Positions 3,478-41,393 of a DNA stretch of 64,000 nt are shown here, piece after piece (within the stretch, counting starts at the first letter, position 1; every line of letters begins with the position of its first letter). The position numbers were made by a program, and so were the translations under genes. Where the stretch lies: the IMG/VR virus record IMGVR_UViG_3300029156_000001, positions 1 to 64,000 of that record; one strand, given 5' to 3'. The notes under the pieces are model-generated. The model was not told where the DNA came from. It worked only from the letters and a program-made list of their open reading frames with translations, and made no database searches. This DNA is from a virus (lineage: Duplodnaviria; Heunggongvirae; Uroviricota; Caudoviricetes).

Positions 3478-3714
3478 GCGAAAGACACCAATTACGAAAT
3501 GTTTTACGGGTCAAAAGCCAACAGACGCCGTTAGCTAGTCCAGTGGCGAGCAGATACAAGCAAAGTGCGATTACTATGACAAACTCTACCGTAAAATAGA
3601 AGAGAAAGCCCAAGAGTACCAGTAGCAGGATAATTTCTAACATACCACATTATATCTCAGGGCGGGCACTCTGTCAAGTGGCCCGCCCTGAAATGTTTTG
3701 TCAGGATTGAGGGA

Positions 3715-12262: not shown

Positions 12263-12595
12263 TTACTTTTTGCGGCGGGCCGCAGATTCGCGACGACGAC
12301 GACGCTCTCTCTTTTTCTTCGCGGAGTATTTGGCCAAGCCACCAATTACACCAACGAAAACGCATGCCGCCAGGAATAGTACCATGATGGCGGCGACAAA
12401 GGCGAGCGGTCCCCAAAAGGGACAAGTCACCCACCACCAGGACCAGCCAGCGACGACGCCGACTTCCCCAAGTTTGAGTCCGACGAACAGCAGGCCAAGC
12501 AGGCCAAGAATAGGAAATGCGGGGCGAGCGGTTTCGGTAGACATGATTTTCTTCCGTTTGTTCGGCTTAGGAGCCGAGGTCATAGTAAGTTTCAT
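12263..12595 (-). CDS. small membrane protein (two TM helices, basic C-terminus)
   Basis: hydrophobic segments GLLGLLFVGL and FVAAIMVLFLAACVFVGVIGGL followed by KKKRERRRRRE. Confidence 0.4.
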   Translation of the reverse strand: MKLTMTSAPKPNKRKKIMSTETARPAFPILGLLGLLFVGLKLGEVGVVAGWSWWWVTCPFWGPLAFVAAIMVLFLAACVFVGVIGGLAKYSAKKKRERRRRRESAARRKK

Positions 12596-15696: not shown

Positions 15697-16365
15697 TCAG
15701 AATGAGTAGCCCAGAAGGACGAAGAGTGTACCGCCATTGAGGCTGGGGCTGTTCACGAAGATATCAGAGTCACTGGCTCCGAAGTGCTGCCGGTACAGAC
15801 CCGCGAGGCTCCAGTTGTCGGACATGAACCATCTGCTGCCGACTTGAGCGTACGGAGCATAGCCGGTGTCACGGTCACTGATAACAGACGTGTACGTGGG
15901 GTCGATGTCGGTATCGATACTGAAAGCCGAGACGCCACCACTAGCAAAAACTTGCCAACGATCAGTCAGCATCCAGTTTTTACGAAGGCCAAAGTAGAGT
16001 TCACGGACCGTCGAGGTTGTGTCACTCACGGGGCGGTTTTCGTAAAAGCCGTCGCTGGAAATGTTCTGGCCCAGCGAAAAGCCAACTTCCGGACCGAAGC
16101 CGTCCTTGCCGCAGAAATCGGCCTGGACGGTAAAAAGCTGTTGCTCGTCGGTTTGCTCCCAATCATTCTGGGCATCGTAGTTTCGCCAACCGTATCCGAT
16201 ATCGACGGTCGGGGCGAGTTGTCCTTGCGGGCCTTGACAGGCGGCGAGGAGGACTAGGGTTGCCGTAGCAAGTAGTAGATTCTTCATGCGTGCATTATAC
16301 TGCACGCATGGAGGGTTGTCAACCTTCTTCTGCTTCAATTTGTTGCAGGGCGTGTGCTTTGGCAA
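15697..16365 (-). CDS. outer-membrane beta-barrel protein with lipoprotein-type signal (Lom/Ail/OmpX-like)
   Basis: signal peptide with LAAC lipobox, alternating amphipathic beta-strand pattern, aromatic-rich, C-terminal ...GYSF (terminal Phe typical of OM beta-barrels). Confidence 0.5.
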   Translation of the reverse strand: MPKHTPCNKLKQKKVDNPPCVQYNARMKNLLLATATLVLLAACQGPQGQLAPTVDIGYGWRNYDAQNDWEQTDEQQLFTVQADFCGKDGFGPEVGFSLGQNISSDGFYENRPVSDTTSTVRELYFGLRKNWMLTDRWQVFASGGVSAFSIDTDIDPTYTSVISDRDTGYAPYAQVGSRWFMSDNWSLAGLYRQHFGASDSDIFVNSPSLNGGTLFVLLGYSF

Positions 16366-17412: not shown

Positions 17413-17501
17413 TGGCTCATGGACTAGGGTTTGCACCTAGGGTGGGGATTACTCCCGCGAGCTTAACAGGCTCGTGCCTTCGACTACTCGGCCATCCATG
17501 A
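17413..17501 (-). tRNA. type II tRNA with Tyr-like body but anticodon GUU
   Basis: 89 nt, acceptor TCATGGA/TCCATGA, D-arm GCC-GAGTAGTCGAA-GGC, anticodon arm CGAGC-CTGTTAA-GCTCG (E. coli tRNA-Tyr has CUGUAAA), long variable arm, T-arm CTAGG-TGCAAAC-CCTAG, encoded CCA. Confidence 0.5.
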
Positions 17502-18945: not shown

Positions 18946-19019
18946 ATTAATGTTTTGGAGCCGGTTCCCGGTACCGCCCCGGGGGCTAAAGCTTACAAGG
19001 CAATTGTTTTACTATTAAA

Positions 19020-19391
19020 CTAAACCGGCTTACGCCTAATGCGTTTGGCGTTTTTGTGTGATTTGAAAGCACGGCAAATACTGCATCTACAGCCACCATC
19101 ATACTTTCTATTTGTACCATGTTTTGCTGGTGGAATCTGACTAATGGTTTTAGCAAGATGACATGGGTGGCATAAAACTTGACACTTCGCAAGTTCTTTT
19201 TGTAGTCTCTTTTCGGACCAAGACCAAACTCTATGTTCTATTTTTTGACTAGGATCAATATGATCAACCTCTAGTCTTTTACTGGAGCCACACTTTACAC
19301 AAGGACCATTTTTCTCTAGCCAATCAGCACGTCGTCGAGCCACCATGAGACGCTGATATTCTCGTTGTTTATTTGGATCCTTGTATGGCAT
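19020..19391 (-). CDS. HNH endonuclease
   Basis: CVKCGS...EVDHIDPS...CHPCH motif. Confidence 0.7.
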   Translation of the reverse strand: MPYKDPNKQREYQRLMVARRRADWLEKNGPCVKCGSSKRLEVDHIDPSQKIEHRVWSWSEKRLQKELAKCQVLCHPCHLAKTISQIPPAKHGTNRKYDGGCRCSICRAFKSHKNAKRIRRKPV

Positions 19392-20944: not shown

Positions 20945-21020
20945 TGGAGGGCACGGTGAGGTTCGAACTCACATCTTCCCGGTTTAGAGCCGGGTGCATT
21001 TCCACTAATGCTACGTGCCC
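20945..21020 (-). tRNA. amber suppressor tRNA (anticodon CUA), U73
   Basis: fully canonical 76-nt fold: acceptor GGGCACG/CGTGCCC, D-arm GCAT-TAGTGGAA-ATGC, anticodon arm CCCGG-CTCTAAA-CCGGG (U33, anticodon C-U-A, A37), T-arm GTGAG-TTCGAAC-CTCAC, encoded CCA. Confidence 0.65.
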
Positions 21021-21147
21021 CTACTCCCCGCTAACGGGGGAATTGTAAATGGCTGCCCTGGTTATGTTGCTTCCTTAGGAATTCAGATATCATGCAAGAA
21101 AACTGGCTACAGCCGCATTTGTTTCTGCCGCTTTTGCGGCAGTTGAG

Positions 21148-21223: not shown

Positions 21224-21234
21224 CATTATAAGCG

Positions 21235-21312
21235 AGTGACTAGGATTCGAACCTAGATCGTGAGCGTCAATAAGACTGGCCAGTCTGGGTGCTCATGTGT
21301 TACCGTTACACT
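21235..21312 (-). tRNA. tRNA-like element with expanded (~25 nt) anticodon-region loop; possible pseudogene
   Basis: T-arm CTAGG-TTCGAAT-CCTAG, D-arm GTGT-AACGGTA-ACAC, acceptor AGAGTGA/TCACTCG, no encoded CCA; TGAGC...GCTCA stem encloses 25 nt including palindrome AGACTGGCCAGTCT. Confidence 0.3.
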
Positions 21313-22664
21313 ATCACTCTATTCTCATATGTCTTTTACAGCATCTTCCGGAAGCTTCGTCTGTTTCTGTTACACTGACGTTGACATAATCGAAGTTCTA
21401 AAACTCGAAAAAGGTAGGACTTGCACCCACCAGCGGTTGTACGACCTATTTAGCTGCCTAATATTTTACGAGGACTCGAACCTCTTACCCTCCAAGGGAA
21501 TGCCGAATCGAACGGCTAACTGCTATTTTCATTTTCGAGCGTTTTGAAACGCAGGCACGACTGGAATCGAACCAGTATTTCCCTGCCGGGCGTACTATCC
21601 ATATTATACTACGTCTTAGTCCTGCGTTGAAAGATAGAGCATCTTGCGATCCCCTTCGTTTGTTTCGCTAGGATTCGCTGTAAATTCTTTCAAGGGCTTC
21701 CACACCCTCACCGGATCGTACGAACCCCGGCGGCTTCTACAACTATTACTATCCACAAACAAACTGAGGCTACGTCACACCTGTCGCAAGTTCACGTAGT
21801 CAGGTTCAGAAGGCATCGGCAATGTACTAGTCATTGCTTACTGAATTCATTTCCTTCGTCTGCCATACTCTATTGTACTATTGTAGGGGTTAAGGACTCC
21901 CTACGAGCCCCAATTTTGGTAACCACTGAAATTGGAAACGGGGCCGATTCACCTTTTTGGATCCACACTTTTATCTTGTCGGCAAAACCATTAGTGTTCT
22001 TAAATCTCGCACCGATCTAGTATAGGCAGCATTCCCGTGGTGACACACGGTCTCTTGCCACAACCTTAATCGTACGCTTCGGATGCGTCACCATCCATCC
22101 CTGTACTCGCTCATCCAGCTTCCGCAACGCTAGTGGATACCAGCCTTGCCGAAGGCAAGCTTTTCTCTATCCTGCGGCACACCCGAAGGCGACCGACTAA
22201 CAGCCTCAGCCCGGCCAAGAGCATAAGGTTTAATGTCCGGAGAACTCGGACAATACGTTCGCTTCGCTCACGAAGCGTTGATTTTGCGGGTTATGGGCCT
22301 CCCGCCAGCCACCTAAGAGTAACCGTCCGCTTTGACGTAACGAGACAGCAAGCGTAGCCGTCTCCCTCTTTCGGTCGTTCGATTTTGGAGCAAAAGCTCC
22401 AAGGAATATATCGTGCCGGTAGCTAAGCGGCAGCCGGTGATCGCTAATACAGGCCAAGTTTCCATCGATGTTTCCATCGTGTACTGACAAGCTGGTGGCT
22501 GGACGATACGTCCCTTACAGCAGCGGACGCTGAGCGTCTCCGCTGCCGTAGAGGTGATCCCGAGTTGTCGGATGGCATCGCTGCCAGAGCCCGAGGTATT
22601 GCCGCCTCACGATCCCCTGCGAAAAGCAGGCTAGACCCGGCTCGTCACGTCACCGCGACAGGAC

Positions 22665-22692
22665 ATTATACACCGACCAAGGCCAATGTCAA
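22665..22692 (-). promoter_or_regulatory. strong sigma70-type promoter (TTGACA-17-TATAAT) firing into the ORF-free region 22660-21330
   Basis: minus-strand sequence TTGACATTGGCCTTGGTCGGTGTATAAT (plus-strand reverse complement at 22665-22692). Confidence 0.6.
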
Positions 22693-22703
22693 GCTGTCCC
22701 TAG

Positions 22704-22728
22704 AAAAAATCAACCCGGCACTTCCGGG
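22704..22728 (-). terminator. intrinsic terminator downstream of HNH gene
   Basis: hairpin CCCGGAAGTGCCGGG followed by TTGATTTTTT on the minus strand. Confidence 0.6.
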
Positions 22729-22770
22729 TCTGAGATAAATATACACTACACGAGACGGTTTGTCAAACAC

Positions 22771-23250
22771 CTAATCTATATCTTTCCACCTTCGTCTGTG
22801 GATGATATGGGCTACCATTGTCTTAGAAATGCCAAACAGTACAGCAATCTTCATCTGGGACATACCATCGGAGGCAGATTGTCGGATTGCGATAACGTCC
22901 TTAATCGTCAGTTTTGCCCTCATTTGTGGGGCACGTCCTTTATCCATCATATCACGGATATTGGTCTTTTGGGTGCCCTGAAACAAATGATCTGGTCGTA
23001 CGCACCTTCGATTATCGCACTCGTGTAAAATATATTGATCGTCTAAGGTGCCATACGTAAGTCGCCAGGACATACGATGGGCACCGATTGTGCCTTCTGA
23101 TCTGCGACCAAGTGCAAACCACCCATAGCCATTTGGATAAAGTGCTCCGGTCCACTCCCAACATTGAGTAGACATATTGCTATCTACACCAAATATACCA
23201 GAGTGTTTATTGACCTTGGCCCAAAAACGATCTTCGATTGATTTTTTCAT
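22771..23250 (-). CDS. HNH homing endonuclease (HNH_3 family with C-terminal HTH)
   Basis: CWEWTG...AHRMSW...HxCDNRRCVRPDHLFQGTQKTN motif; paralog of the 2986-3477 endonuclease. Confidence 0.8.
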   Translation of the reverse strand: MKKSIEDRFWAKVNKHSGIFGVDSNMSTQCWEWTGALYPNGYGWFALGRRSEGTIGAHRMSWRLTYGTLDDQYILHECDNRRCVRPDHLFQGTQKTNIRDMMDKGRAPQMRAKLTIKDVIAIRQSASDGMSQMKIAVLFGISKTMVAHIIHRRRWKDID

Positions 23251-23314: not shown

Positions 23315-24163
23315 TTATAGACGAATGATGAAGCCCCCGGCTCCAGCGGCGGGATCCGTGTCGTCGTCGTAGTCGTCTTCATCGAAAACGTAACAGGTCT
23401 CTTCCTCTTCCTCAACCTCCGTCTCGTCGTAGAGCGGACTTTGGAGGATGGTCGCGTGATCGACCTCGCGGAGCACTTCGTATTTGCAGACCCGGAGCTT
23501 CTGAGCGGAAGCGTAGGGCACGCTCACGCAGTCAGCGGGATCGACAGCAACCAGGACGACGCGACCGCCACTGGTAGCCCAGGACGACGCATAGCTCTGC
23601 GAGCCTACGTGATATCCGTACGAGCACGACTGACGGGCATCGTCGTCCACCTGATTACGCGGCATGGAAATCACTTTGCCCGGCGAGTTGTCAACCGTGC
23701 CAGTGTATCGATCAGTGAAATCACCGCTGATACCTTTGTAGCCAACGAAGCGTCCATCTTCCATGAGGGCCATGCCCTCATTTTCAAGGAAGCCATAAAG
23801 CTCCTCGACCGAACGACGCGACGGGTTGGACATGAGCCGCTCAAGGAACCGCACAAGCGGCTGGAACGGCAGACCTTGATTGAAGAATTGCGTAATGCGA
23901 GTGGCAACGGTGCCATGCACCGGCTCGCCATCGAAGGACACTTCACCGTATTGGTTAACGGTAACGTTGCCATCGGTATAGGTACTCATGGCTTGCGGAA
24001 TATCCACCAGCGTCGGGAGCACGTCCCAGGTCTTGTCACGAATCGCATCAAGAATGGCTTGATGGTTCGGGTGACTTTGACCAATCGAATGAGTTTGACC
24101 TTCGAGAATCAGGGTGACGTTGAGATCGCCCGTGATCAGGTACTTCGGTTGTTCAGTATTCAT
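23315..24163 (-). CDS. hypothetical protein with acidic C-terminal tail
   Basis: 282 aa; C-terminus EVEEEEETCYVFDEDDYDDDTD; coupled to downstream rIIA-like gene. Confidence 0.4.
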   Translation of the reverse strand: MNTEQPKYLITGDLNVTLILEGQTHSIGQSHPNHQAILDAIRDKTWDVLPTLVDIPQAMSTYTDGNVTVNQYGEVSFDGEPVHGTVATRITQFFNQGLPFQPLVRFLERLMSNPSRRSVEELYGFLENEGMALMEDGRFVGYKGISGDFTDRYTGTVDNSPGKVISMPRNQVDDDARQSCSYGYHVGSQSYASSWATSGGRVVLVAVDPADCVSVPYASAQKLRVCKYEVLREVDHATILQSPLYDETEVEEEEETCYVFDEDDYDDDTDPAAGAGGFIIRL

Positions 24164-24165: not shown

Positions 24166-26115
24166 TTAGGATCCCAATTCGTTTTTCATTTTGATGTATT
24201 CAAGTACATCTTTAAGGTCTGCGTATCGTAGGTTGATGTTACTGATCAGCGGATACCGCTGTCGGAAAAGGTCAAGGTAGTCCGGAGCTTCCGGAAGTGT
24301 CAGATCGAATCGTTGCAGTAACGTACGCCACTCATGCGGCGGCTGCTCCGTCCGTAGGAAGGCCACGACGTTCGTGCATGTTTCTGACAGACCGTCGATT
24401 CCATTAAGAAAACTACTCTCGTAAGGATTATAACTATCGTGATGCCATACGGCCCGGGTCATGTCGTTAGCTGTGGTGACGAAGGTTTCCATCGCTTTAC
24501 GGGCCAGCACTTCAAGGTCTTTCAGACCAAGGCCGTCTCGTAGTTTTTCATAGCGATTCATCGGCAGTCCGTACACCGTCTCGATACCAATGCTGGCAGC
24601 GATACGCTGAGCTTCGGAGGGATCCATATGAACCCCCATGAAAACAACATGGTATCCTCTACGTTGGACGCATGCTGCCTTGGTAGTGGTCACGTTGGCT
24701 TCGTCAACGTTTGTCCACTTCTCAGACATGCGACGAGCCCAGCCGTCACCAATTTGCTTAATGTAGGTACGGTTGCCACCGTTAGAGCCGCCGCCTCCGT
24801 TATTGCGGGGTGCTTGAGGAATTTCCGTTAGCTTGATCGCGGGCTCGCCCAGCATTTTAGCAAAGCGTGCTGCGTTTTCGATGGTGGCAAGATAGACAAT
24901 CGTGCCTCGCTCTTGGTTACGGATCCAGTGTCGCAGGTTGTTCTTAAGTCCTTGCCTAATGCTGCCGGGTTCTTCCACGTCGCATTCAACGAATGCATAT
25001 TGCGAACCCGAGTAAGGACGCAGATGACTCTCGAAACGGTCCTGCCCAACAAAAAGCTTATCTCCGCGAAGCTCCGCTTTACGAAGAGTGTAGACGCCTT
25101 CGCGTGCAGTCGGTAGCGAATTGACCGTAGCAGAAAAGTTAAGTAGGTTGCCAAATTGCTTAAGGGCAATCAAACGCTCCAGTAGGCTATTGCAATGTCC
25201 AAGCGAAGATTGAATTTTCTTGTTGACAATCTCCTGAGCTTCATTAATACGTTTTTGAATAGCGGCCACAGTGGCCTTATCGTATTGGAGTTCTTCTCGG
25301 CTCACGGCAGGCTGACACTCACCCACGGGCACGTACAGCACAAGCTCCGCAGATCGACCAAGCTTGTGTTCAATTTTGTTTTCTGAAACAGCGTAACACA
25401 CCTTGCCCATGACGACGCTGATTTTTCCAGCGGCATTCGCATCGCCATCGTAGATGGCCCAACCGTCACCCTCGTAGACCGGCTCTGCCTCTTCTTCGAA
25501 TTCAACACGGGCACCCGTGAAATTCGGCTTGACAGGGAAAAACCGGAAAACACTTTCGGCGTTACGTTGGAATTCGTATTGATCCCCAGGTCGCGTATCG
25601 AGACGAACCTCAAGGCCATCGGGCTCGTCAGTGGATTGCGTATTGACCAAAGCAATGGTCGGCTCACCCGTTTCGGCTTTAAATGCTGAATATGTACGAG
25701 CTTCGCCATTCAGATAAGCGACAACCGTAAACATATCGGTATAGGCAAAGGGCGATTTCGAGCCCAGGCCAAAGCCACCAGTCGCTTCTTCGGATTCACG
25801 ATTGATAGATTCGAAGTAAACGGTGTAAACATTGAGGATGGCGTCGTGATCGAGGCTCGGTCCGAAGTCGCGGATCGCGAACCAGGGCTCCATCGAGTTC
25901 GGAAGATGAACGTCGAAAGGCACGTCGGCCTTGCCGACCGCGATGTGGGCGTCTGCCGCGTTGGTGGAAAGTTCGCGGACGATGGCAAGCCTGGGATCCG
26001 TATAGAGCCCGTCGGACAGGATTTGGAACGCCTGGACGTTCGCTGCGATCCGGAAGGTTTGCTCCGGAAAGTCGCCTGAACGCTTAATGTCGCGTTTCTG
26101 AGAGGTGAGTTTCAT
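24166..26115 (-). CDS. rIIA: rIIA-like protein (HATPase_c N-terminal domain)
   Basis: N-terminus FRIAANVQAFQILSDGLYTDPRLAIVRELSTNAADAH aligns with T4 rIIA [37 protein letters not shown]; 649 aa. Confidence 0.6.
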   Translation of the reverse strand: MKLTSQKRDIKRSGDFPEQTFRIAANVQAFQILSDGLYTDPRLAIVRELSTNAADAHIAVGKADVPFDVHLPNSMEPWFAIRDFGPSLDHDAILNVYTVYFESINRESEEATGGFGLGSKSPFAYTDMFTVVAYLNGEARTYSAFKAETGEPTIALVNTQSTDEPDGLEVRLDTRPGDQYEFQRNAESVFRFFPVKPNFTGARVEFEEEAEPVYEGDGWAIYDGDANAAGKISVVMGKVCYAVSENKIEHKLGRSAELVLYVPVGECQPAVSREELQYDKATVAAIQKRINEAQEIVNKKIQSSLGHCNSLLERLIALKQFGNLLNFSATVNSLPTAREGVYTLRKAELRGDKLFVGQDRFESHLRPYSGSQYAFVECDVEEPGSIRQGLKNNLRHWIRNQERGTIVYLATIENAARFAKMLGEPAIKLTEIPQAPRNNGGGGSNGGNRTYIKQIGDGWARRMSEKWTNVDEANVTTTKAACVQRRGYHVVFMGVHMDPSEAQRIAASIGIETVYGLPMNRYEKLRDGLGLKDLEVLARKAMETFVTTANDMTRAVWHHDSYNPYESSFLNGIDGLSETCTNVVAFLRTEQPPHEWRTLLQRFDLTLPEAPDYLDLFRQRYPLISNINLRYADLKDVLEYIKMKNELGS

Positions 26116-26220
26116 GGTTTCCTTGTTGTTGTGCCCCCTTCATCGAGGACACCACATTATACGCCCTATCGGACATATGTCAAGCCGGGGCAAGTAAAAA
26201 CTCACCCCGGCTTGGATTGA

Positions 26221-33509: not shown

Positions 33510-33523
33510 TCTTGAAAAGGAAT

Positions 33524-33551
33524 TGACAATCTGATCTGGTAGCGTATAATG
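33524..33551 (+). promoter_or_regulatory. sigma70-type promoter (TTGACA-16-TATAAT) for tRNA-fMet
   Basis: ttgacaatctgatctggtagcgtataat ~90 nt upstream of the plus-strand tRNA. Confidence 0.55.
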
Positions 33552-33716: not shown

Positions 33717-33881
33717 ACAATCGGTAGACACCCTTGAGCCCGACTCTACCGATTGCTGAAAAAGGGGCAAGAAAGAAGTGGACAAACCAATCGGGACCGT
33801 CGATTTTCCGCCGATTGTTACAAAACCACAGCCGTAGACGGACGGAAGCGGTGAACCTTGCGAGGTGACATCGCCCCCTTG

Positions 33882-33905
33882 GAGCCCCGTAAGGGGCTTC
33901 TTTTT
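33882..33905 (+). terminator. intrinsic terminator
   Basis: hairpin GAGCCCC-GTAA-GGGGCTT followed by CTTTTT. Confidence 0.55.
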
Positions 33906-33908
33906 ATT

Positions 33909-34442
33909 ATGCAGAGATTTTGGAACAAAGTACATAAACTACCGGGTGATGATGCTTGTTGGATATGGCAGGCCAGCCTCAATAGTGGTGGTTATGGACA
34001 GTTTAGATTTGATGGCAAGGTTCGCCGTGCTCATCAAGTTAGCTGGAAATTGGAGAAGGGCCAGTGGGCCCCTTACTTATGCCATACGTGTGATACACCC
34101 GCATGTGTCAATCCTGCTCACTTATATGAAGGTGACAATCAGGGCAATATGGACGATAAATATAAACGTGGTAGGTCCAATCATCGTACCAAATATAGTA
34201 ACCATCTTGTACGTCGTATTCGCCGTATGTATGCTGTCGGATTTTCCAGCACATATATCATAGAGCAATTACAATTACCTAATAGCACCGTACATAACAT
34301 TTTGAACGGTAATACTCGTAGGAGTGCCGGGGGTCCAATTAGACAACCTGGACAACGTTATTATGGTAATCGCTTCAAAAAGACAGATTCACAGAATCGT
34401 AGAAGTGTCAATCGGCCTCTTACTATGTCCCAAAAATCGTAG
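33909..34442 (+). CDS. HNH homing endonuclease (HNH_3 family)
   Basis: CWIWQASLNSGGYGQF...AHQVSW...CHTCDTPACVNPAHLYEGDNQGN; start set at MQRFWNKV right after the terminator. Confidence 0.75.
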   Translation: MQRFWNKVHKLPGDDACWIWQASLNSGGYGQFRFDGKVRRAHQVSWKLEKGQWAPYLCHTCDTPACVNPAHLYEGDNQGNMDDKYKRGRSNHRTKYSNHLVRRIRRMYAVGFSSTYIIEQLQLPNSTVHNILNGNTRRSAGGPIRQPGQRYYGNRFKKTDSQNRRSVNRPLTMSQKS

Positions 34443-35030
34443 GAGGCCCACATCAACCCTTACTGGGGGACCGGGGCTTTCCCGCTTGCACGGGCAGGGC
34501 TCCCGGCCCCGAAGGGCCGACTTCCGATACTCGGGATTGGGCGAAGTCACTACTCCCAATCGCGGAACCCCGTAGTGGCGAACAAGTCAGCGTGCGGGGT
34601 CTTCGTCCCTCAGGACGCATACAGTATAGCTCGAAAACGAGCGATGTCTACTCTTTTCGCTCAAAAATGTGAGCGAAGCTTTTGAGCATATCTGCCAATC
34701 GACTCAGATCCACGTCCCCACCGTTTCCAGCGTTGCGGATCTTCATGACGGCTTCGTGCCACTCTCTACAGAGTGTTGCTACGCTTTTCTGTTCCATGAC
34801 GACAGTATACCCGGGACTAAGCATCAGGCAAGTGCCAAGTATATACTTTTTTCTTTTTCCAGCTCGGTCGAAGACCGTCCTACCTATATGATAGTACAAC
34901 AGAGCATCGTTTTTCACGATAATCTCGAAAAAGATTTGACCCCTGGTCTACTTACGCTATACTCCTAGCGTCATCGCAATGGAGCGATGCAAAACAAAAC
35001 CAGCCCGCGTAGGGCGGAAAGAGACCAATC

Positions 35031-35249
35031 ATGGCCAAGTCCAAAAAGACCGAAGAGAAACGCGGCCGGGGCCGCCCCGCCAGCTTCCCGAACACCGATA
35101 CCGTCGCCCTCCTGGCTCGGATCCCTGTCGCGACCCGCGAGCAGCTCCGTCAGGTCGCAGAACGTCGCGAGGAGCCCATCAACGTCACGCTCAACCGTTT
35201 CATCGAGCAGGGTTTCAAGAACGCCACTCGCAGCCGCAAGAGTAGCTGA
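35031..35249 (+). CDS. small basic DNA-binding protein (AT-hook GRGRP plus RHH/Arc-like C-terminus)
   Basis: KRGRGRPAS AT-hook; C-terminal REQLRQVAERREEPINVTLNRFIEQG resembles ribbon-helix-helix. Confidence 0.35.
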   Translation: MAKSKKTEEKRGRGRPASFPNTDTVALLARIPVATREQLRQVAERREEPINVTLNRFIEQGFKNATRSRKSS

Positions 35250-35267
35250 GTCACTCCTACGCGGGAC

Positions 35268-35305
35268 TAAGGGTCACCCCTAAATGGGGGTGGCCCTTCT
35301 TTTTT
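35268..35305 (+). terminator. intrinsic terminator
   Basis: GGGTCACCCC-TAAAT-GGGGGTGGCCC hairpin followed by TTCTTTTTT. Confidence 0.65.
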
Positions 35306-35391
35306 CAGAATCCGCTTGCTTTCTCGCAAGCGGGAGGTATACTCTGGGGAATCGAGGGAAACGACCCTCACAACCCACTTAGGAGAACGAC

Positions 35392-36480
35392 ATGATCAAG
35401 GGATTTTTCAACCCCCGCACCGAAGGCGACACGTTCAAGGGTCTCGGTCTTGCGATGGGCATGGATGGCACCGTCGCGGACGCCATTCACCGTGACCTCT
35501 ACGGTTTCCTCAAGGCCGCAGGCCGAGACTACCACATCAAGAAAGTTCCGGCTTTCGACTGGTCCCCTGTCGGAGCGATGGATGCCGAGTCGGGCGAGAT
35601 GGTCCCCGGGGCCATCGAGGTCGAGAACCAGTATCACCTTCGCCGGTCGCACGATCACCGGATCGTGAGCCCCGGCACCGTCACCGATTCCTACGCTCCG
35701 CTGTCCCTCATGGACGTGGCCGAGGAGATCGCCCCCTGGGTCCAGGCCGGATGGGCTACCCCGGATGCCGTGTTCGAAGCCCGCAACGGCTCGCTCGAAG
35801 TCCTGGTCCTGCGTCTCGATGCGGGTATGGACGCGAACGAACTCCGCGATGGTGACTTCTATGTTCACTACATCGTGATTCAGAACCCGCACGGTCGGGG
35901 TGGCAAGGCCCGGGGCAAGATCATCAGCTTCCGGATCGTCTGTGCCAACACGTTCGCCGCCGCCGTTTCGGCCGCGAGTGACTTCACGATCACGCACCGG
36001 GTTGCGAAGGGCGATCCGGAGGAGCAAGCCGCGATCATGCAGGAGCGGACGAAGGAAGCGGTCGCTGCGTGGGAAAAGGTCCAGGCTCACATCGCTGACC
36101 TTGCCAAGCGGATCAACGTTTGGGCCGATGCCACGATCACTTTCGCGGACGCGGAGCACCTCACCGATCAACTTCTTGGCCTTGCCGACGGTGGGACGAA
36201 AACTCTCGCGGGCAAGGATGCCAGCGGACAAGCGAAGAACGATCGCGAGGCCGTCCTCGCCGCCTACGCCATGCCGCAGTACGGCACCAACGGGGCCACC
36301 GTTTACGATTGGATCAACGGTGTCACCTTCGTCAATTCCAGCCCGAACTCGGATCGGGTCAAGGGGTCCAAGGTCTCGATGATCGACCGGGTGGTCCGTA
36401 ACGTGGACCCGAACGGTACCGGCCTCAAGGTCGAGGTCAAGGCCCAGAAGGTTGTCGATGCCTTCCTCGGGGCCAAGTGA
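35392..36480 (+). CDS. hypothetical protein, possibly DUF932/TIGR03299 phage-plasmid-like family, in GC-rich island
   Basis: AGGAG RBS 8 nt upstream; 362 aa; ~65% GC versus ~50% elsewhere; family assignment from memory only. Confidence 0.4.
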   Translation: MIKGFFNPRTEGDTFKGLGLAMGMDGTVADAIHRDLYGFLKAAGRDYHIKKVPAFDWSPVGAMDAESGEMVPGAIEVENQYHLRRSHDHRIVSPGTVTDSYAPLSLMDVAEEIAPWVQAGWATPDAVFEARNGSLEVLVLRLDAGMDANELRDGDFYVHYIVIQNPHGRGGKARGKIISFRIVCANTFAAAVSAASDFTITHRVAKGDPEEQAAIMQERTKEAVAAWEKVQAHIADLAKRINVWADATITFADAEHLTDQLLGLADGGTKTLAGKDASGQAKNDREAVLAAYAMPQYGTNGATVYDWINGVTFVNSSPNSDRVKGSKVSMIDRVVRNVDPNGTGLKVEVKAQKVVDAFLGAK

Positions 36481-36501
36481 TAACACTCTCCGGGGTCGAG
36501 G

Positions 36502-36530
36502 TTGACAAACCTCGGCCCTGGAGGTATGTT
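36502..36530 (+). promoter_or_regulatory. sigma70-type promoter (TTGACA-17-TATGTT)
   Basis: gttgacaaacctcggccctggaggtatgtt immediately upstream of 36536 ORF. Confidence 0.45.
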
Positions 36531-36535
36531 ACATC

Positions 36536-36769
36536 ATGGCTCGCCATACTATCGGTAATCGGCGGGGTTCCGTTCGCGGTGCTCCCCCCGATGTCTACAT
36601 GGGCTTCATGGATGCGTCCGCTGGAGCCGAGGACGAGAAAGCTATCTGGGAGCCCGTGTTTCGCCTCCTCCGAAGTTGGGGAGGGTTCGCGGTCGCCTGG
36701 GTCCTGTTCTACTTTTTCATGGCAATTTTGTGGGCAATCGGTCTACTACCGGACGAGTTCGCAGGTTGA
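36536..36769 (+). CDS. small membrane protein
   Basis: 77 aa, C-terminal TM helix FAVAWVLFYFFMAILWAIGLL. Confidence 0.4.
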   Translation: MARHTIGNRRGSVRGAPPDVYMGFMDASAGAEDEKAIWEPVFRLLRSWGGFAVAWVLFYFFMAILWAIGLLPDEFAG

Positions 36770-36787
36770 GATAACCCGAGGGGCCGC

Positions 36788-36816
36788 TTGACAAAGGCGG
36801 CCCCTCGGTGTATACT
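36788..36816 (+). promoter_or_regulatory. sigma70-type promoter (TTGACA-17-TATACT) embedded in hairpin GAGGGGCCGC...GCGGCCCCTC
   Basis: cttgacaaaggcggcccctcggtgtatact; the -35 lies in the loop of a GC hairpin (terminator/promoter overlap). Confidence 0.45.
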
Positions 36817-36825
36817 AGAAGCGTT

Positions 36826-37047
36826 ATGAAGCTCGTCCCGAAAACCCGCAAGGGTAAGAACAAGATCGCTGAGGCGGGCACCGACCGCTGGCACGTCGTC
36901 GGCACGGCCGATAGCGTACAATGCCTTGGGAATCGTCCCGGCCTTTTGATCCGTCCGACGTTAGAACATCAGCCGCAACCCGATAAGCGGCGTTGGATTC
37001 TGGCCCAAAATGATCCTGATTTTGAGCTTGTCTGGGGAGAGGATTGA
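36826..37047 (+). CDS. hypothetical protein
   Basis: MKLVPKTRKGKNK... ATG 10 nt after -10; ORF track lists longer 36808 start. Confidence 0.35.
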   Translation: MKLVPKTRKGKNKIAEAGTDRWHVVGTADSVQCLGNRPGLLIRPTLEHQPQPDKRRWILAQNDPDFELVWGED

Positions 37048-37061
37048 GGGTATACTAAGCC

Positions 37062-37433
37062 ATGACCACTTATCGAATCAACTGGACGGATCGCACCGGC
37101 TACTACACCGAGATCGACGCCGATTCTCCCGAGGAGGCCCTGGAGTATTTCAACGATGGTCTCGACGGCGATGGCATCGAGCCCGACGGCTTCGCGGAAA
37201 GCGAGCCAGGCAGCATCGAGATCGCTCCGCTAGATAGTAACGGGGAGCCGATGGATCCGATCCCGCAGCCCCGTACCTTCGCGGCTCTCTTGTCGCTGCT
37301 TTGCTTGCATTGTCCCGAGGGGACGATGGGGGAGGACCTCGACGGGCAACTGGTATTCTATACCGGTCTAAAAGAAACGACCGACAGAAACGTCGAGGCT
37401 TTCAAACCTGAGGACGAGGACGAGAATCCCTAA
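37062..37433 (+). CDS. hypothetical acidic protein
   Basis: 123 aa, Asp/Glu-rich; preceded by GGTATACT -10. Confidence 0.4.
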   Translation: MTTYRINWTDRTGYYTEIDADSPEEALEYFNDGLDGDGIEPDGFAESEPGSIEIAPLDSNGEPMDPIPQPRTFAALLSLLCLHCPEGTMGEDLDGQLVFYTGLKETTDRNVEAFKPEDEDENP

Positions 37434-37636
37434 AAAAGTAGGAGTCTCAGAATAAGTAGTTACAGGGAGAGAGGGCGACCCTCTCCCCCTGGGGGCGGAA
37501 AACAATTCCCCTGCCATAATGGCATACGAAAATTCTTCCGGCTGCCAATTTGGCGTCCCGCCGGAAGGTACTCTCCAACGGTAACAGTATAGCTCCCTTT
37601 GGCCACTTGTCAAGCTGAAAAACATTTGGATTTTTC

Positions 37637-37665
37637 GTTTGCATTTCTCGCTCCGCGTGGTATAA
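37637..37665 (+). promoter_or_regulatory. early-promoter module TTGCATTTCT-N-TGGTATAAT
   Basis: tttgcatttctcgctccgcgtggtataat; member of reiterated promoter family. Confidence 0.5.
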
Positions 37666-37671
37666 TCTGGC

Positions 37672-38322
37672 ATGAAACGAACGATCAAAGCACTCACGGA
37701 AGCGGTCGGGGGGCTCTCGAATCCCTCGAAAATGCCCGGCCTTTCCTACGGTATCCCTGCCGCCGCCTGCCCCGTGGGGGCGATCTTGCGACGGAACCCG
37801 GATAGCGTATGCGGATCCTGCTACGCTCACGGGGGCATGTACAATTTTCCGGTCGTGAAAGCGGCCCTTGCTCGCCGCCTGGAAATTCTTTCCGCCGACC
37901 TCGACCAATGGCGTCGGGATATGACGGAACTTCTTTCCCGGAAGTACGCCCGCAAGGCTGGCGATGCGAAAGTTTTTCGCTGGCACGATAGCGGTGACCT
38001 CCAGGGTGCGGAACATCTTTCGGTCATCGTCCAGATCGCGAAAGATCTTCCCGATGTCCGGTTCTGGCTCCCCACGAAGGAATATCGTACCGTGCGGGAA
38101 TGGGTGCGGACGAATGGGGAATTTCCTTCCAACCTCACGGTACGGATTTCGGCCCCGATGATCGGAGCGGAAAGCATTTCCAGTATTCCGGGAACGGTCG
38201 GGTCTACCGTGAACACCGGAACGGGTTTCCAATGCCCCGCCTACTCCCAAGGGGGAGAGTGCAAAAATTGCCGAGCGTGCTGGAGTCAGGAAAACGTTTC
38301 AGTAAACTACCCCTTGCATTAG
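37672..38322 (+). CDS. hypothetical Cys-rich protein (KMPGLSYG...CPVG...CGSCYAHGG)
   Basis: 216 aa; conserved-looking Cys cluster; no confident family assignment. Confidence 0.45.
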   Translation: MKRTIKALTEAVGGLSNPSKMPGLSYGIPAAACPVGAILRRNPDSVCGSCYAHGGMYNFPVVKAALARRLEILSADLDQWRRDMTELLSRKYARKAGDAKVFRWHDSGDLQGAEHLSVIVQIAKDLPDVRFWLPTKEYRTVREWVRTNGEFPSNLTVRISAPMIGAESISSIPGTVGSTVNTGTGFQCPAYSQGGECKNCRACWSQENVSVNYPLH

Positions 38323-38542
38323 CGGCGGGACAGGGTATACTATCACGGTCGAAGGGCCACGAGGACCCGAGACCGTAGAATCGAGACCCGCTAGCGTCGA
38401 AACGCGGGGGACACCGATAGGCTCCAATCGTCCGAAACAAGGGGTGGCCGTGCGGGGTCTATATATGGCAAGCCGGAACCGCATTTTTCGGCTGCCGTTT
38501 CTCTGACGCCCTGAGAGACCGCAGGACGAGGGTGGCCCAAAC

Positions 38543-38601
38543 GTGCGTGGCTTAGCTACGCGGGCTGGCGGTGCTGCCGCGAGAGCGGCCCACAGGCCGC
38601 C
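38543..38601. repeat. GC-rich palindromic repeat element, copy A
   Basis: GTGCGTGGCTTAGCTACGCGGGCTGGCGGTGCTGCCGCGAGAGCGGCCCACAGGCCGCC; copies at 39851-39905 and 43001-43059. Confidence 0.55.
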
Positions 38602-38633
38602 ATATGACAAATGCAATTTCAAGCATTCTCCGC

Positions 38634-38661
38634 TTGACGTTTGGGTAAGCGGAGGTATAAT
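38634..38661 (+). promoter_or_regulatory. sigma70-type promoter (TTGACG-16-TATAAT)
   Basis: cgcttgacgtttgggtaagcggaggtataat upstream of 38670 ORF. Confidence 0.5.
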
Positions 38662-38669
38662 GTAGTGCA

Positions 38670-38993
38670 ATGACATACCGAGAAACAATCGCCTGGATTT
38701 GGGAACGACCCGCGAGGGCTCTCAAAATTTACTTCGGCGGAAGCCGTACCGCTGCCATTCAAGAAATGTGCATCGGTTGCGTGGGTACCGCTCAAGAGGC
38801 CAAGAAATGCGTTTGCATCGATTGCCCTCTCTGGCCCTTCCGTCCCGGTGCGACCCGTGGCGAGGTGCCCGACTTCGTGCCGACTGAGGCCGAGCTACGT
38901 GCCCTGGCCGATGCCAAGGTGCCCGATGCCGTGCGGGCCAATGCGGCCCGAATGGGGAAGGCACGAGCCAAGGGCCGCGAAGAAACTTCTTGA
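38670..38993 (+). CDS. hypothetical Cys-rich protein
   Basis: 107 aa; CIGCVG...CVCIDCPLW. Confidence 0.4.
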   Translation: MTYRETIAWIWERPARALKIYFGGSRTAAIQEMCIGCVGTAQEAKKCVCIDCPLWPFRPGATRGEVPDFVPTEAELRALADAKVPDAVRANAARMGKARAKGREETS

Positions 38994-39016
38994 CTTCCCT
39001 CGTCAATAGTGTATAC
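38989..39016 (+). promoter_or_regulatory. sigma70-type promoter (TTGACT-16-TATACT)
   Basis: cttgacttccctcgtcaatagtgtatact. Confidence 0.5.
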
Positions 39017-39168
39017 TATTGACGTGGGAAAGAAAAAGAAAGAACGACTCCCGGCTGAGGTCGAGGAACTCAAAGCACGGGCGGCGGGAATGGCATTCGC
39101 CACCCGTGGGCGTGCTCGCCGTTTCAAGGATCGTAAGAAAGACGCCGACCGTAAGGCGTGCCGAGGAA

Positions 39169-39357
39169 ATGAAGCAAAAAACCACGATAACGATTAGTCG
39201 CCACGAGCTACTGGGCATCATTCGGGCTCATATCAATCTCTCGCAAAAGACCGTGGCTATCATTCCGAATGATGCGACGATTTCCGTAGAAACGGGCGAG
39301 TGCTACAATGCGACCGTGGAGGATCATAATCCTCTGGAAATTTCCTGGGAATCCTAG
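39169..39357 (+). CDS. hypothetical protein
   Basis: 62 aa from ATG with GAGGAAATG RBS; preceded by a ~58 aa Lys/Arg-rich ORF starting GTG 39024. Confidence 0.3.
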   Translation: MKQKTTITISRHELLGIIRAHINLSQKTVAIIPNDATISVETGECYNATVEDHNPLEISWES

Positions 39358-39438
39358 TTGCCCCGTTGTCGTTTCGGTGGTATACTGTAGTGTCGTTCAA
39401 TGAGGGACGACAACGAGATAACACCGAAAAGGATTCTC

Positions 39439-39783
39439 ATGCAAACGATCACTCAAGAACAAGCCGCCGCACGCATCCGTCAGTCCCGGGGCCGTTTGTT
39501 CGGCGTCACGTTCGTCAAGCGTTCCGACGGCTCGCTTCGCAACCTCACCGGCCGCCGTGGTGTCACCGCTGGCGTCAAGGGTGGCGGTAGCGGCTCCAAG
39601 TTCAACGCTGCGGCCCACAACCTCCTGACCGTGGCCGAGTTCGTCACGGACGAGGACACCCCCAGGGATGCCAAGGGGCGTTTCAACGGGGCGGGTAGCC
39701 TGGGCTACCAGTACCGCCATATCCCGATCGAGGGGATCCGGTCGCTTCGGATCGGTGGCGAAACCTTCGCAGTCGAAGCCTAG
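39439..39783 (+). CDS. hypothetical protein (Gly-rich central loop)
   Basis: MQTITQEQ... with AAGGA RBS; promoter GGTGGTATACT at 39378-39386. Confidence 0.4.
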   Translation: MQTITQEQAAARIRQSRGRLFGVTFVKRSDGSLRNLTGRRGVTAGVKGGGSGSKFNAAAHNLLTVAEFVTDEDTPRDAKGRFNGAGSLGYQYRHIPIEGIRSLRIGGETFAVEA

Positions 39784-39850
39784 TCCAAAGAACGGCATCT
39801 GTAGCCACCCAGGCGGCCCGAAAGGGCCGCCCACTAGTAGCCACAAAAAT

Positions 39851-39905
39851 GTGCGTGGCTTAGCTACGCGGGCAGAGCCCGCGTGGGGGAGAGGGCCGCA
39901 CAAGC
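39851..39905. repeat. GC-rich palindromic repeat element, copy B (partial)
   Basis: GTGCGTGGCTTAGCTACGCGGGCAGAGCCCGCGTGGGGGAGAGGGCCGCACAAGC. Confidence 0.5.
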
Positions 39906-39931
39906 GGCTTGCTTGAAATCGAAAAATCTAT

Positions 39932-39960
39932 TTGCATTTCTAGCTTCGCTAAGGTATACT
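39932..39960 (+). promoter_or_regulatory. early-promoter module TTGCATTTCT-N-GGTATACT
   Basis: tttgcatttctagcttcgctaaggtatact. Confidence 0.5.
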
Positions 39961-39965
39961 GTGGC

Positions 39966-40169
39966 ATGAAGTACGTGATCAACAGAGGCCCCTTCGATGC
40001 CACCGTCGATGAGGCCCGTGAGAGTGGGCAGCGACTCGGCCAGTGGTTCGTAAACAACCTCCTGACTGATACGCTTGTCGAGGGCCGTGAGGATACGCCC
40101 CGCCTGTTCTACTGTGAGGATTGTGATTTTCCCACAGTAGTTCTTGACTTCGTGACGATTCTGGAGTAG
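39966..40169 (+). CDS. hypothetical protein
   Basis: MKYVINRGPFDATVDEARESGQRLGQWF...; 67 aa. Confidence 0.35.
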   Translation: MKYVINRGPFDATVDEARESGQRLGQWFVNNLLTDTLVEGREDTPRLFYCEDCDFPTVVLDFVTILE

Positions 40170-40178
40170 AATATAGTC

Positions 40179-40679
40179 ATGAAGCTGACAAAAGGAGCAA
40201 TTCTTGTGCGTGCTCGCCGCATCATCGATGAGACCATCGAGCGATGCCCGCAGTATGCGGACAAACTTCGGAGCATTCGTTTTGAGGTCTCGGGTCGCAT
40301 GACGGCCTGTGCTGGAAAAGCGTTCTACGCTCGCAACCTCGTCAAGCTCTCGCTGCCGTATTTCGCGGACGAGGGTAACGCCGACTCTCACCTGTTCGAG
40401 ACCGTTACACACGAGGCCGCTCACCTCGTCATGGGGCCGGGTTACGGTCATGGTGGCCTGTGGAAACGATGTCACCGGGAGATGGGTGGCAAGGGCGAAC
40501 GGTGTCATAGCCTGGAGCTTGCTAGTGGCTACACTCGCCGCAAGAGTCAAGCCCGGGTAGAGTCTCAATGTTCGCGGTGCGATCAGCCCATCACGCTCGG
40601 CCCACGCCAAGCCAAAAAGCATGAGGCCCTGAGAGCGGCGGGACGAGAGGGCTACCGTCACCGTCAGTGTCCGCGATAA
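40179..40679 (+). CDS. SprT-like zinc metalloprotease-domain protein
   Basis: HEAAHLV (HExxH) in SprT-like context, C-terminal Cys-rich zinc ribbon. Confidence 0.5.
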   Translation: MKLTKGAILVRARRIIDETIERCPQYADKLRSIRFEVSGRMTACAGKAFYARNLVKLSLPYFADEGNADSHLFETVTHEAAHLVMGPGYGHGGLWKRCHREMGGKGERCHSLELASGYTRRKSQARVESQCSRCDQPITLGPRQAKKHEALRAAGREGYRHRQCPR

Positions 40680-40699
40680 ACAAAATTCCCAGGGGTCGC

Positions 40700-40727
40700 T
40701 TGACTTTGCGACCCCTGGGAGTATAAT
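40700..40727 (+). promoter_or_regulatory. sigma70-type promoter (TTGACT-16-TATAAT)
   Basis: cgcttgactttgcgacccctgggagtataat. Confidence 0.5.
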
Positions 40728-40732
40728 GGGAC

Positions 40733-40942: not shown

Positions 40943-41034
40943 CAATCTCACAATTCTATTTGCTTTTTCGAGCCCTGTGGGTATACTGTATTCATGTAAG
41001 CGAAATGGTACAAAGCAGATGGGGAAACCTGCGT

Positions 41035-41217: not shown

Positions 41218-41393
41218 GTCGAGAGATATCGGCACGCCGTTGCTGAGAAATCCAGAGCGGAAGAGTATCGTCGTACTGCTGTCCAGCATTGTGATACCTA
41301 CCGTGCAATACATCGGCTGCGATACTGGACAAATGAGGTCCGCGAAGCACTCGAAGCCCTTGACAAATCGTTATTGCGTGGTACAATAGAAGC

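Follow-up and report, generated by a model that had tools for sequence, protein, structure and literature searches.

Gene content and transcription signals of the locus

The stretch considered here, positions 21330-22700, lies in a 64,000-nucleotide (nt) window (positions 1 to 64,000) of the phage record IMGVR_UViG_3300029156_000001 and encodes no credible protein. The window is part of a 105-kb phage contig, Ga0168037_100002 (JGI 3300029169). All genes from 1 to ~29 kb of the window are on the minus strand, on which the order is an rIIA-like gene (24166-26115), an rIIB-like gene (23315-24163; PF26926), a gene for a 159-residue endonuclease with HNH_3 and HTH domains only (22771-23250), the non-coding stretch, tRNA-Leu(CAG) (21232-21320), which is the first tRNA after the stretch, and the remainder of an array totalling 25 tRNAs, including a suppressor tRNA(CUA) at 20945-21020. 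The phage also encodes Thg1-like, PTH2, RlaP and ligase proteins. We consider it very probable that the stretch is a conserved, functional structured-RNA locus, which is neither protein-coding nor an intron. It is of a known kind, i.e. the large structured RNAs of phage tRNA islands, yet belongs to no described family, and extends that kind by its modular architecture and by a tRNA mimic that lacks an anticodon.

The original prediction, that the stretch is free of open reading frames (ORFs), is borne out, the longest start-to-stop ORFs being of 86 residues (22230-22490, minus strand, TTG start) and 74 residues. Reading TAG, TGA or TAA in turn as a sense codon does not open a convincing frame; the maximum obtained on stop codon reassignment, 189 stop-free codons, is on the strand opposite to all neighbouring genes.

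A consensus σ70 promoter, TTGACA-16-TATAAT, is present at 22665-22692 (minus strand) and matches the consensus at 12 of 12 positions; its spacer is, however, of 16 bases, not of 17 as first read. The transcription start is predicted to be near 22658. As had been suggested, the promoter is preceded by a terminator for the endonuclease gene, in that an intrinsic-terminator-like hairpin (22712-22730, minus strand; a 7-bp stem with five GC pairs, then GATTTTTTCT) lies between the endonuclease stop codon and the promoter, so closing the rIIB/HNH transcription unit. Six perfect TTGACA-N16/17-TATAAT promoters occur in the window, compared with 0.02 expected, all of them co-oriented with the local genes; five are on the minus strand (2151-2179, 3649-3677, 16294-16322, 22665-22692 and 26156-26183) and one is on the plus strand (33523-33550). 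The last of these precedes tRNA-Met (33640), at the point where gene orientation switches.

At the other end of the stretch, ~90 nt before tRNA-Leu(CAG), there is a second terminator-like hairpin, GGUGGG-UGCAAGU-CCUACC followed by UUUUU (21413-21431, minus strand). Given this hairpin, the transcript may or may not read through into the tRNAs. The description of the stretch as GC-rich is partly correct, its GC content being 0.52 compared with ~0.49 for the window.

Conservation of the locus in related phages

Relatives were retrieved as contigs encoding rIIB homologues with 54-67% protein identity to that of the window; two further relatives (L017 and L018) were obtained through motif scans. 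In every contig retrieved via rIIB, that gene is immediately followed by a gap of 1.6-3 kb which contains no genes, and at nine of the loci so retrieved rIIB, promoter, RNA and tRNAs follow each other in that order. The RNA modules in these gaps have 70-86% nucleotide identity to the window (nhmmer, blastn), which, when compared with the 54-67% amino acid identity of the adjacent rIIB proteins, is above the expectation for neutral DNA. Overall, a conserved non-coding locus between rIIB and the tRNA array is present in at least 11 related uncultured phage contigs. The same promoter, with the 16-bp spacer and no more than one or two mismatches, precedes the homologous RNA in six relatives (L008, L010, L013, L014, L017 and L018); in four others (L015, L009, L011 and L016) a TATAAT box only was read by eye.

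The family is narrow in its distribution. Searches of 50,697 deposited phage records with the stretch (blastn) and with the surrounding 15 kb (megablast) gave no match. In the nearest cultured phages by rIIA (Phaeobacter phage MD18 and others, ~35% identity) rIIB is followed by protein genes and not by an RNA gap, and a homologous RNA was not found in more distant rIIA relatives (L001-L005). Collections were scanned with conserved motifs as exact patterns. The scan of IMG/VR gave one true relative, L017, that of metagenomes gave one new relative, L018, together with four chance matches, and that of genomes gave L008 again, one chance match and nothing else. Scanning the collections with the module A motif gave five chance matches only, and scans with the exact module D sequence and with one module B motif gave nothing. 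One of the relatives, L008 (NZ_JAILWB010000012.1, 157,945 bp), is phage-like and is binned in a Hydrogenophaga sp. metagenome-assembled genome, which hints at a Comamonadaceae host or is a binning artefact.

The 5' leader and the multi-helix domain

To judge from the alignments, purifying selection maintains the structure of each of five modules of the stretch, termed A, A2, B, C and D. Module A (22495-22659, minus strand) is the 5' leader and consists of upstream hairpins, a single-stranded motif, GACAACUCGGGAUCA (22555-22569, minus strand), and a hairpin after this motif (22518-22548, minus strand). The motif is present in exactly one copy in each of 11 of 11 loci, always just after the promoter, its invariant part being GACAAYUYGGRAYCA, and six of the eight pairs of the hairpin that follows show compensatory changes. 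The minimum free energy (MFE) z-score of the module, i.e. of the 5' 165 nt, is -3.9. The presence in module A of GGAUCACCUC, which is like the 3' end of 16S rRNA, was considered and dropped; the CACCUC part of it is not conserved among the relatives.

The constant position of module A raises the possibility, which we regard as unlikely, that the locus acts solely in cis, as the leader of the tRNA operon; on this view module A, like boxA/nut or put elements, would enable RNA polymerase to resist termination, and the rest would protect a long untranslated transcript or organise its processing. Module A does immediately follow the promoter at 11 of 11 loci, its motif is followed by a hairpin, as in lambda nut, and an RNA of this length that is not translated would have to be shielded from Rho. 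The core of the Escherichia coli rrn boxA is CUCUUUAACAA, to which the motif CUCUUUGACAA of four relatives (L013, L016, L017 and L018) is identical at 10 of 11 positions. A nut-type boxA/boxB leader would have a promoter-proximal, GCUCUUUAACAA-like boxA beside a hairpin and would bind NusB/NusE. The module A motif is promoter-proximal and is accompanied by a hairpin at all 11 loci; CUCUUUGACAA is present at four of them, and the window reads AUCCGACAA. However, the window and five other loci do not have the boxA-like CUCUUU part, and the terminator-like hairpin stands between the stretch and the first tRNA. A leader role would also leave unexplained 270-900 nt of conserved multi-helix structure and modules that move among tRNAs.

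Module A2 (22411-22507, minus strand) is 85.6% identical over 97 nt to L013 and can be aligned to L008. It contains a GNRA-capped hairpin, CACGAUG-GAAA-CAUCG, in place of which different, again complementary, stems are read from the alignment in L013 and L008. Immediately 5' of module B is what we term the punctuation hairpin, CGCUUCG-UGAG-CGAAGCG(A) (22259-22277, minus strand). Near-identical hairpins are located directly upstream of the 5' ends of tRNA-Tyr in L010 (96.6% over 29 nt) and of tRNA-His in L016, and one is also present in L013.

Module B (22000-22267, minus strand) is a 268-nt domain of 10 helices that is 70-75% identical to its counterparts in L008, L014, L015, L017 and L018. 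In the alignment its 74 pairs are maintained in 95% of cells, and 29 pairs are changed on both sides; none of 500 shuffles reached 29 pairs and slid controls gave 2-11. A covariance model of the module (R1) scores 251 bits in the window, where there is no other copy, and finds exactly one copy in each of six sources, i.e. the window and the five relatives just named; R1 did not find module B in L009, L010, L011, L013 or L016. The invariant loops of helices 8 and 10, GUGACG and UGUCAC, are mutually complementary, from which a kissing contact between them is predicted.

These results bear on the proposal that the stretch is a protein gene read in an alternative code, or else consists of decayed tRNA genes or junk, which we consider very improbable. 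The proposal has some basis, in that the phage carries a suppressor tRNA(CUA), the 33.8-44.3 kb region of the window looks amber-recoded, and tRNA-Tyr and tRNA-Gly genes which the relatives have in this region are not present in the window. By contrast, no single stop codon reassignment yields a long frame, the substitutions are compensatory within helices and do not show codon spacing, and, as described above, the RNA has a nucleotide identity (70-86%) exceeding the amino acid identity of the neighbouring protein (54-67%).

Module C, the tRNA-shaped module D and the segments between them

Downstream of module B there is a linker with local hairpins (21870-21999, minus strand; MFE z-score -1.1) for which no homologue was found, the one alignment given by nhmmer, to L016, being weak (E = 1.6e-4, low posterior). 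Module C (21767-21869, minus strand) comprises a GAAGG/CCUUC stem, an exposed palindrome, UGAAUUCA, a hairpin with the palindromic loop ACUAGU and a 3' hairpin in which CUACGU and ACGUAG enclose GAACUUGCGACAGGUGUG. It is 79% identical to L015 and is present too in L011 and L016. Five of the six outer pairs of the 3' hairpin are compensated, and the palindromes stay palindromic despite changes in their sequence (UGAAUUCA, UGGUACCA and UGGCCA for the first; ACUAGU and UCCGGA for the second). Between modules C and D is a segment, E (21642-21766, minus strand; MFE z-score -1.2), which, as read from the sequence, is closed by a 9-bp stem, GUUUGUUUG/CAAACAAAC; nhmmer did not find a homologue of it among the relatives.

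The tRNA-like elements that were noticed at the outset in this part of the stretch are present, and comparison with the relatives shows in addition that the stretch is conserved, with base-pair covariation. All three T-arm-like hairpins can be read from the sequence (in plus strand coordinates, GAGG-TTCGAGT-CCTC at 21470-21484, GCCG-TTCGATT-CGGC at 21502-21516 and ACTGG-TTCGATT-CCAGT at 21560-21576), as can the 7-bp closure ACGCAGG/CCTGCGT around the last of them (21621-21627 and 21549-21555). This last hairpin is part of module D (21548-21628, minus strand), a tRNA-shaped element in which an outer stem of 8 bp, AACGCAGG/CCUGCGUU, is joined across a conserved bulge of 6 nt, ACUAAG, to an inner acceptor of 3 bp. 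Among the features of a tRNA it has a D arm, GUAU-AAUAUGGAUA-GUAC, with G18 and G19, a T arm, ACUGG-UUCGAUU-CCAGU, and UA, with U8, after the inner acceptor; these features are conserved at four loci, with compensatory changes in the stems. At the place of the anticodon arm there is a 3-bp stub with a 4-nt loop, and there is no CCA.

Module D was not called as a tRNA by ARAGORN in the window, and the Rfam tRNA model (RF00005) gives 27.9 bits on 21557-21614, below its 29-bit cut-off and covering model positions 5-66 only. With this score, a reduced anticodon arm, an acceptor closed by a further stem and no CCA, module D is rejected as a complete tRNA. A covariance model of the module (R2) scores 116 bits in the window and 116, 77 and 71 bits in L009, L015 and L008, respectively, giving one copy per locus at four loci, with real tRNAs at 25 bits or less. 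Neither R1 nor R2 found further copies in the window or at other loci. As read from the alignments, 7 of the 22 pairs of module D are compensated among three lineages, and in L008 and L015 there are 40-55 nt inserted at the anticodon position.

The other two T-loop hairpins (21502-21516 and 21470-21484) flank a mini-hairpin, CCCU-UGG-AGGG, in a cloverleaf-like MFE fold that we term D2 (21440-21531, minus strand). The fold is predicted for the window sequence only (MFE z-score -0.3), and neither nhmmer nor R2 found a homologue of D2 among the relatives.

Module D has similarities to the bacterial Y RNAs, in that a tRNA-like core with T-loop and D-loop features is carried on a long terminal stem whose bulged 5' strand is conserved. 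The Yrn1 RNA of Deinococcus radiodurans has D-like and T-like arms in the same order as in module D; by contrast, YrlA is circularly permuted relative to module D and has its ends at the anticodon position (PMC4201824). Phage-encoded Y RNAs exist, and the reported Y RNAs are within 4 kb of a Ro60 gene (PMC4201824). The 5' strand of module D, GACUAAG, is one mismatch from the Y RNA motif GNCGAA(N)G. The YrlA model (RF02553) did not, however, match at E ≤ 10, and a tblastn search of the window, for which the only query was the C-terminal 210 residues of the L009 protein, gave no Ro60 homologue, nor is there an ORF of suitable size; membership of module D in the Y RNAs is thus rejected. Among the relatives a TROVE/Ro60-like gene is present in L009 only, ~11 kb from its module D.

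A role of module D, and perhaps of D2, as a decoy or adaptor, which imitates the elbow and acceptor of a tRNA so as to bind a tRNA-recognising protein, is conceivable, though the probability that we give to it is low. The proposed targets are a host anticodon nuclease or other defence, a modification or repair enzyme, or, in the manner of Y RNAs, Ro60. Such a role would fit with the retention of the GG of the D-loop, the UUCGAUU T-loop and the U8-A9 features when the anticodon is absent, and with the presence of Thg1-like, PTH2 and RlaP proteins in the phage. The terminal stem with its conserved bulge, GGACUAAGA, is reminiscent of the Ro60-binding stem and the Y RNA motif, the arm order is that of Yrn1, and L009 has both a module D and a Ro60/TROVE-like gene. 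The distance of ~11 kb between these two, compared with 4 kb for the reported Y RNAs, the failure of the YrlA model to match and the failure of the above tblastn search to find a Ro60 homologue in the window argue against a Y RNA-like role, and anticodon nucleases need an anticodon loop, which module D does not have. As a compact and conserved tRNA mimic, module D may be of use as a probe for enzymes that recognise the tRNA shape.

Also comparable are the tRNA-like 3' processing modules of the mascRNA/MALAT1 type, in which a tRNA-like fold with a shortened anticodon arm is embedded in a long non-coding RNA whose ends are set by RNase P and RNase Z cleavage. However, the mascRNA system is eukaryotic, and module D has an extended, closed acceptor stem. 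A weak match to the mascRNA model (23.9 bits) was observed in L008 at 12295-12351.

Modularity of the locus

In L008, L014, L015, L017 and L018 modules A and B continue into a 3' domain of ~420 nt, giving an RNA of ~900 nt. The 3' domain has 108 predicted pairs, 44 of them compensated. A profile of this domain found nothing anywhere in the window, which therefore carries a mosaic variant in which A-A2-B is followed by C, D and D2. The three latter elements occupy the place which in the relatives is that of tRNA-Tyr, tRNA-Gly(TCC) and tRNA-Gly(GCC), none of which was found by ARAGORN in the window.

In L008 and L015 the large RNA stops a few nt before the tRNA-Tyr sequence (called by ARAGORN in L008; not called, and read by eye, in L015), and module D begins ~5 nt after tRNA-Gly(GCC). 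In L015 module D, directly after tRNA-Gly(GCC), comes before module C, an order opposite to that in the window, and L013 is without module B. The occurrence of modules in differing sets and orders among the phages implies that the unit of selection is the module and not the entire 1.3-kb stretch. The proposal of one long non-coding RNA thus holds in so far as the stretch is non-coding and has its own promoter, but what follows that promoter is a chain of modules in varying combinations and orders.

A further non-coding module, CGUCGCAAGGCAAGCGACCGGA...GCCUGGGCAAGCACUCUAGAG.UUGCGACGUA, is shared by L010 (11725-11820) and L016 (approximately 2300-2400) and is absent from the window, so that the set of RNA modules in the islands must be larger than that described here. 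In L008 (13863-13945) and L015 (13622-13703), an 82-nt element located between tRNA-Ala and the tRNA after it scores 68-70 bits on the Rfam model of transfer-messenger RNA (tmRNA), spanning model positions 1-374; it looks like the tRNA-like domain without the whole mRNA and pseudoknot part. At the corresponding place the window has an unrelated spacer of 127 nt (21021-21147).

Comparison with known RNA families

The covariance model search that had been proposed was carried out with Rfam 15, using gathering thresholds over the whole window and E ≤ 10 over the stretch. In the window it gave only tRNAs and the sub-threshold match on module D. No family was found for modules A, B or C or for the 3' domain in the window or in five relatives (L008 and L018 at E ≤ 10; L014, L015 and L017 at E ≤ 1). 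The absence of tmRNA and RNase P signatures, as noted by eye in the original prediction, is upheld; ARAGORN did not find a tmRNA in the window, and at E ≤ 10 neither RNA gave an Rfam match in the stretch. Assignment as a HEARO/IscB omega-RNA was also rejected, there being no Rfam match and the neighbouring protein being of only 159 residues with HNH_3 and HTH domains. IscB-type proteins are of at least 400 residues and have RuvC and HNH domains.

The closest parallels in terms of setting are GOLLD and ROOL, which occupy the tRNA-island niche of phages, sometimes with tRNAs embedded in them (PMC12286853). As in GOLLD, the locus studied here is that of a large, multi-domain phage RNA in or beside a tRNA island, has a conserved and a variable part, and has tRNAs embedded or adjacent; it differs in that the universal part is at the 5' end, whereas in GOLLD it is at the 3' end, and in that homology is not detectable. 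Under the thresholds given above the GOLLD model (RF02032) matched neither the stretch nor the five relatives, and in the same run it scored the GOLLD of phage phiCbK, which contains an embedded tRNA-Gly(TCC), at 165 bits, a positive control from which it is clear that GOLLD would not have been missed. Comparison by nhmmer and blastn with phiCbK GOLLD and with GOLLD env-38, the latter taken, like ROOL env-120, from the supplement of PMC12286853, gave chance and T-arm matches only. A 12-mer in common with GOLLD env-38, AGCUUGUGAUAG, does not fall on a conserved position of GOLLD and could have arisen by chance. ROOL, an RNA of ~600 nt, is similar to the locus in that it is encoded by phages or prophages in the vicinity of tRNA islands and that no protein partner is known for it; ROOL membership was likewise rejected, there being no Rfam match and no similarity to ROOL env-120.

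It may be, though we think it unlikely, that the RNA is a self-assembling ‘ornate’ RNA of the GOLLD/ROOL type, forming symmetric homo-oligomers via loop-loop and palindromic contacts, the product being a particle made of RNA alone, with tRNA-like parts or tRNAs displayed on it or enclosed in it. The niche is the same as that of GOLLD and ROOL (PMC12286853), the ~900-nt RNA of the relatives has more than 180 conserved pairs, the two exposed palindromes of module C are kept while their sequence changes, and the invariant loops of module B, GUGACG and UGUCAC, are complementary; the reported GOLLD and ROOL interfaces include self-complementary GC contacts. On the other hand, sequence or structural homology to GOLLD or ROOL was not found. 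The palindrome argument is post hoc, involving two or three independent changes, and ~1.6 palindromes of 6 nt are expected by chance per 110 nt. Module C is, moreover, a separate module outside the large RNA in L015, and the window copy is without the 3' domain of the relatives.

A more specific proposal, quite unlikely in our estimation, is that the A-B RNA, of ~900 nt in the relatives and in a shorter, mosaic form in the window, belongs with GOLLD and ROOL among the giant ornate RNAs of phages, as an independent third class. It would self-assemble through symmetric RNA-RNA contacts, via the module C palindromes and the GUGAC/GUCAC loops of module B, the covalently linked tRNA mimics D and D2 engaging the host tRNA or translation machinery early in infection. 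GOLLD and ROOL of phage tRNA islands have recently been shown to form RNA-only cages, the function of which is still unknown. The finding of an unrelated family in the same niche would mean that this niche repeatedly evolves ornate RNAs. The present family, which has an early consensus promoter and in which covariation is strong, modules can be interchanged and tRNA mimics are built in, would then offer a second, independent handle on what such RNAs do, and its natural domain deletions and swaps, e.g. the window without the 3' domain and L013 without module B, could guide experiments.

A further parallel is with RNAC and RNAD (species 1 and 2 RNAs) of T4, a phage that likewise has rII genes. 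These stable non-coding RNAs are encoded in the tRNA gene cluster of T4 and are matured together with the tRNAs. They are, however, of ~120-140 nt, the present locus being ten times longer; they are also classed as late RNAs, whereas the locus has its own early-type σ70 promoter. The function of RNAC and RNAD is still unknown (PMC9697503).

The neighbouring HNH endonuclease and the intron question

The location of the HNH_3 gene (22771-23250) next to the stretch, together with the tRNA-like pieces inside the latter, forms the basis for the proposal of a split or intron-containing tRNA, or of another self-splicing intron, mobilised by the adjacent endonuclease. This proposal is already contradicted by the data and retains practically no probability. 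The relatives keep the same RNA directly after rIIB without an HNH gene at that position, the HNH gene of the window is outside the RNA, upstream of both promoter and terminator, and module D is a whole element, in which form it is conserved. Group I or II introns were not matched in the stretch or in the five relatives searched; over the stretch Rfam gave only a chance match of 12.3 bits (E = 7.7) to a group II D1-D4 model, on a terminator hairpin. In the flanks there are neither tRNA halves nor a split gene.

In related islands homing endonuclease genes are scattered at varying sites. The lack of an HNH gene between rIIB and the promoter in the relatives, together with endonuclease genes elsewhere, indicates that the HNH gene in the window is an incidental, free-standing homing endonuclease insertion. 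HNH and PD-(D/E)XK genes were observed at varied sites and on either strand in L009 (12457-13173) and L010 (11281-11622, 12712-13080 and 13991-14494). It appears that the RNA/tRNA islands are hot spots for homing endonucleases of the free-standing kind.

Proposed expression and processing

Taking these observations together, we consider it reasonably probable that the locus is a non-coding one at the head of a tRNA island, which is transcribed early, cut by host tRNA enzymes and gives rise to stable RNAs acting in trans. In the proposed sequence of events, unmodified host RNA polymerase would start at the consensus promoter (~22658) early in infection, without phage factors. The predicted transcript, of ~1250 nt, would remain untranslated and fold into the independent modules A, A2, B, C, E, D and D2. 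Host tRNA-processing enzymes (RNase P, RNase Z and others) might then cut the precursor at the tRNA-shaped module D and, in the relatives, at the flanking true tRNAs, perhaps also at the punctuation hairpin. Stable structured RNAs would so be released, as for T4 RNAC/RNAD and MALAT1/mascRNA, and may act in trans during infection. The specific step of maturation by the tRNA-processing machinery is put forward tentatively, with its probability somewhat below even; in keeping with it are the proximity of the large RNA and of module D to tRNAs in L008 and L015 and the occurrence of the punctuation hairpin before tRNA 5' ends in L010 and L016. The genomic company of the locus (25 tRNAs, the suppressor tRNA, Thg1-like, PTH2, RlaP and ligase) suggests a role in translation or in tRNA maintenance.

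Several points weigh against this interpretation. The start of transcription, the terminator and all of the cleavage sites are predicted ones, and recognition of module D by RNase P or RNase Z is not assured because its acceptor is closed and bulged and it has no CCA. The family is small, with 6-11 sequences, some closely related to each other, so that the covariation statistics are founded on few independent events. About 40% of the stretch (21870-21999, 21642-21766 and 21405-21531) is without a homologue in the few relatives available. The description of the stretch as highly structured is supported by the covariation, but the thermodynamic evidence for it is modest for most pieces. For the 1254-nt transcript as a whole an MFE z-score of -3.1 was obtained, with 12 shuffles only, and, module A apart, the scores of most pieces are between -1.4 and +0.7. 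Because thermodynamic stability alone is modest, the case for structure is made on comparative data.

Other features of the window and related islands

In the region 33800-44300 of the window (plus strand) the GC content is 0.55-0.62, compared with ~0.48 elsewhere, and there are almost no long ORFs in the standard code; with TAG read as a sense codon a near-contiguous series of plus-strand ORFs is obtained. Genes for tRNA(CUA) and RF-1-like genes are also found in the relatives. Amber recoding may affect part of the genome.

Some of the tRNAs are also unusual. A long tRNA-Asn(GUU), of 89-90 nt, is present beside a tRNA-Asn(GUU) of the normal 75 nt and is conserved (17413-17501, minus strand, in the window; 17334-17422 in L008; 19306-19394 in L010; 6835-6924 in L016). 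Its extra length may be due to a long variable arm or to an insertion. At 18959-19029 of the window (minus strand) there is a match to the Rfam tRNA model of 43.9 bits that was not called by ARAGORN. A tRNA-like sequence in L014 (11752-11845), with ~30 nt inserted in the anticodon-loop region, scores 38.5 bits on the Rfam tRNA model and was not called by ARAGORN either; it could be an intron-containing or otherwise expanded tRNA.

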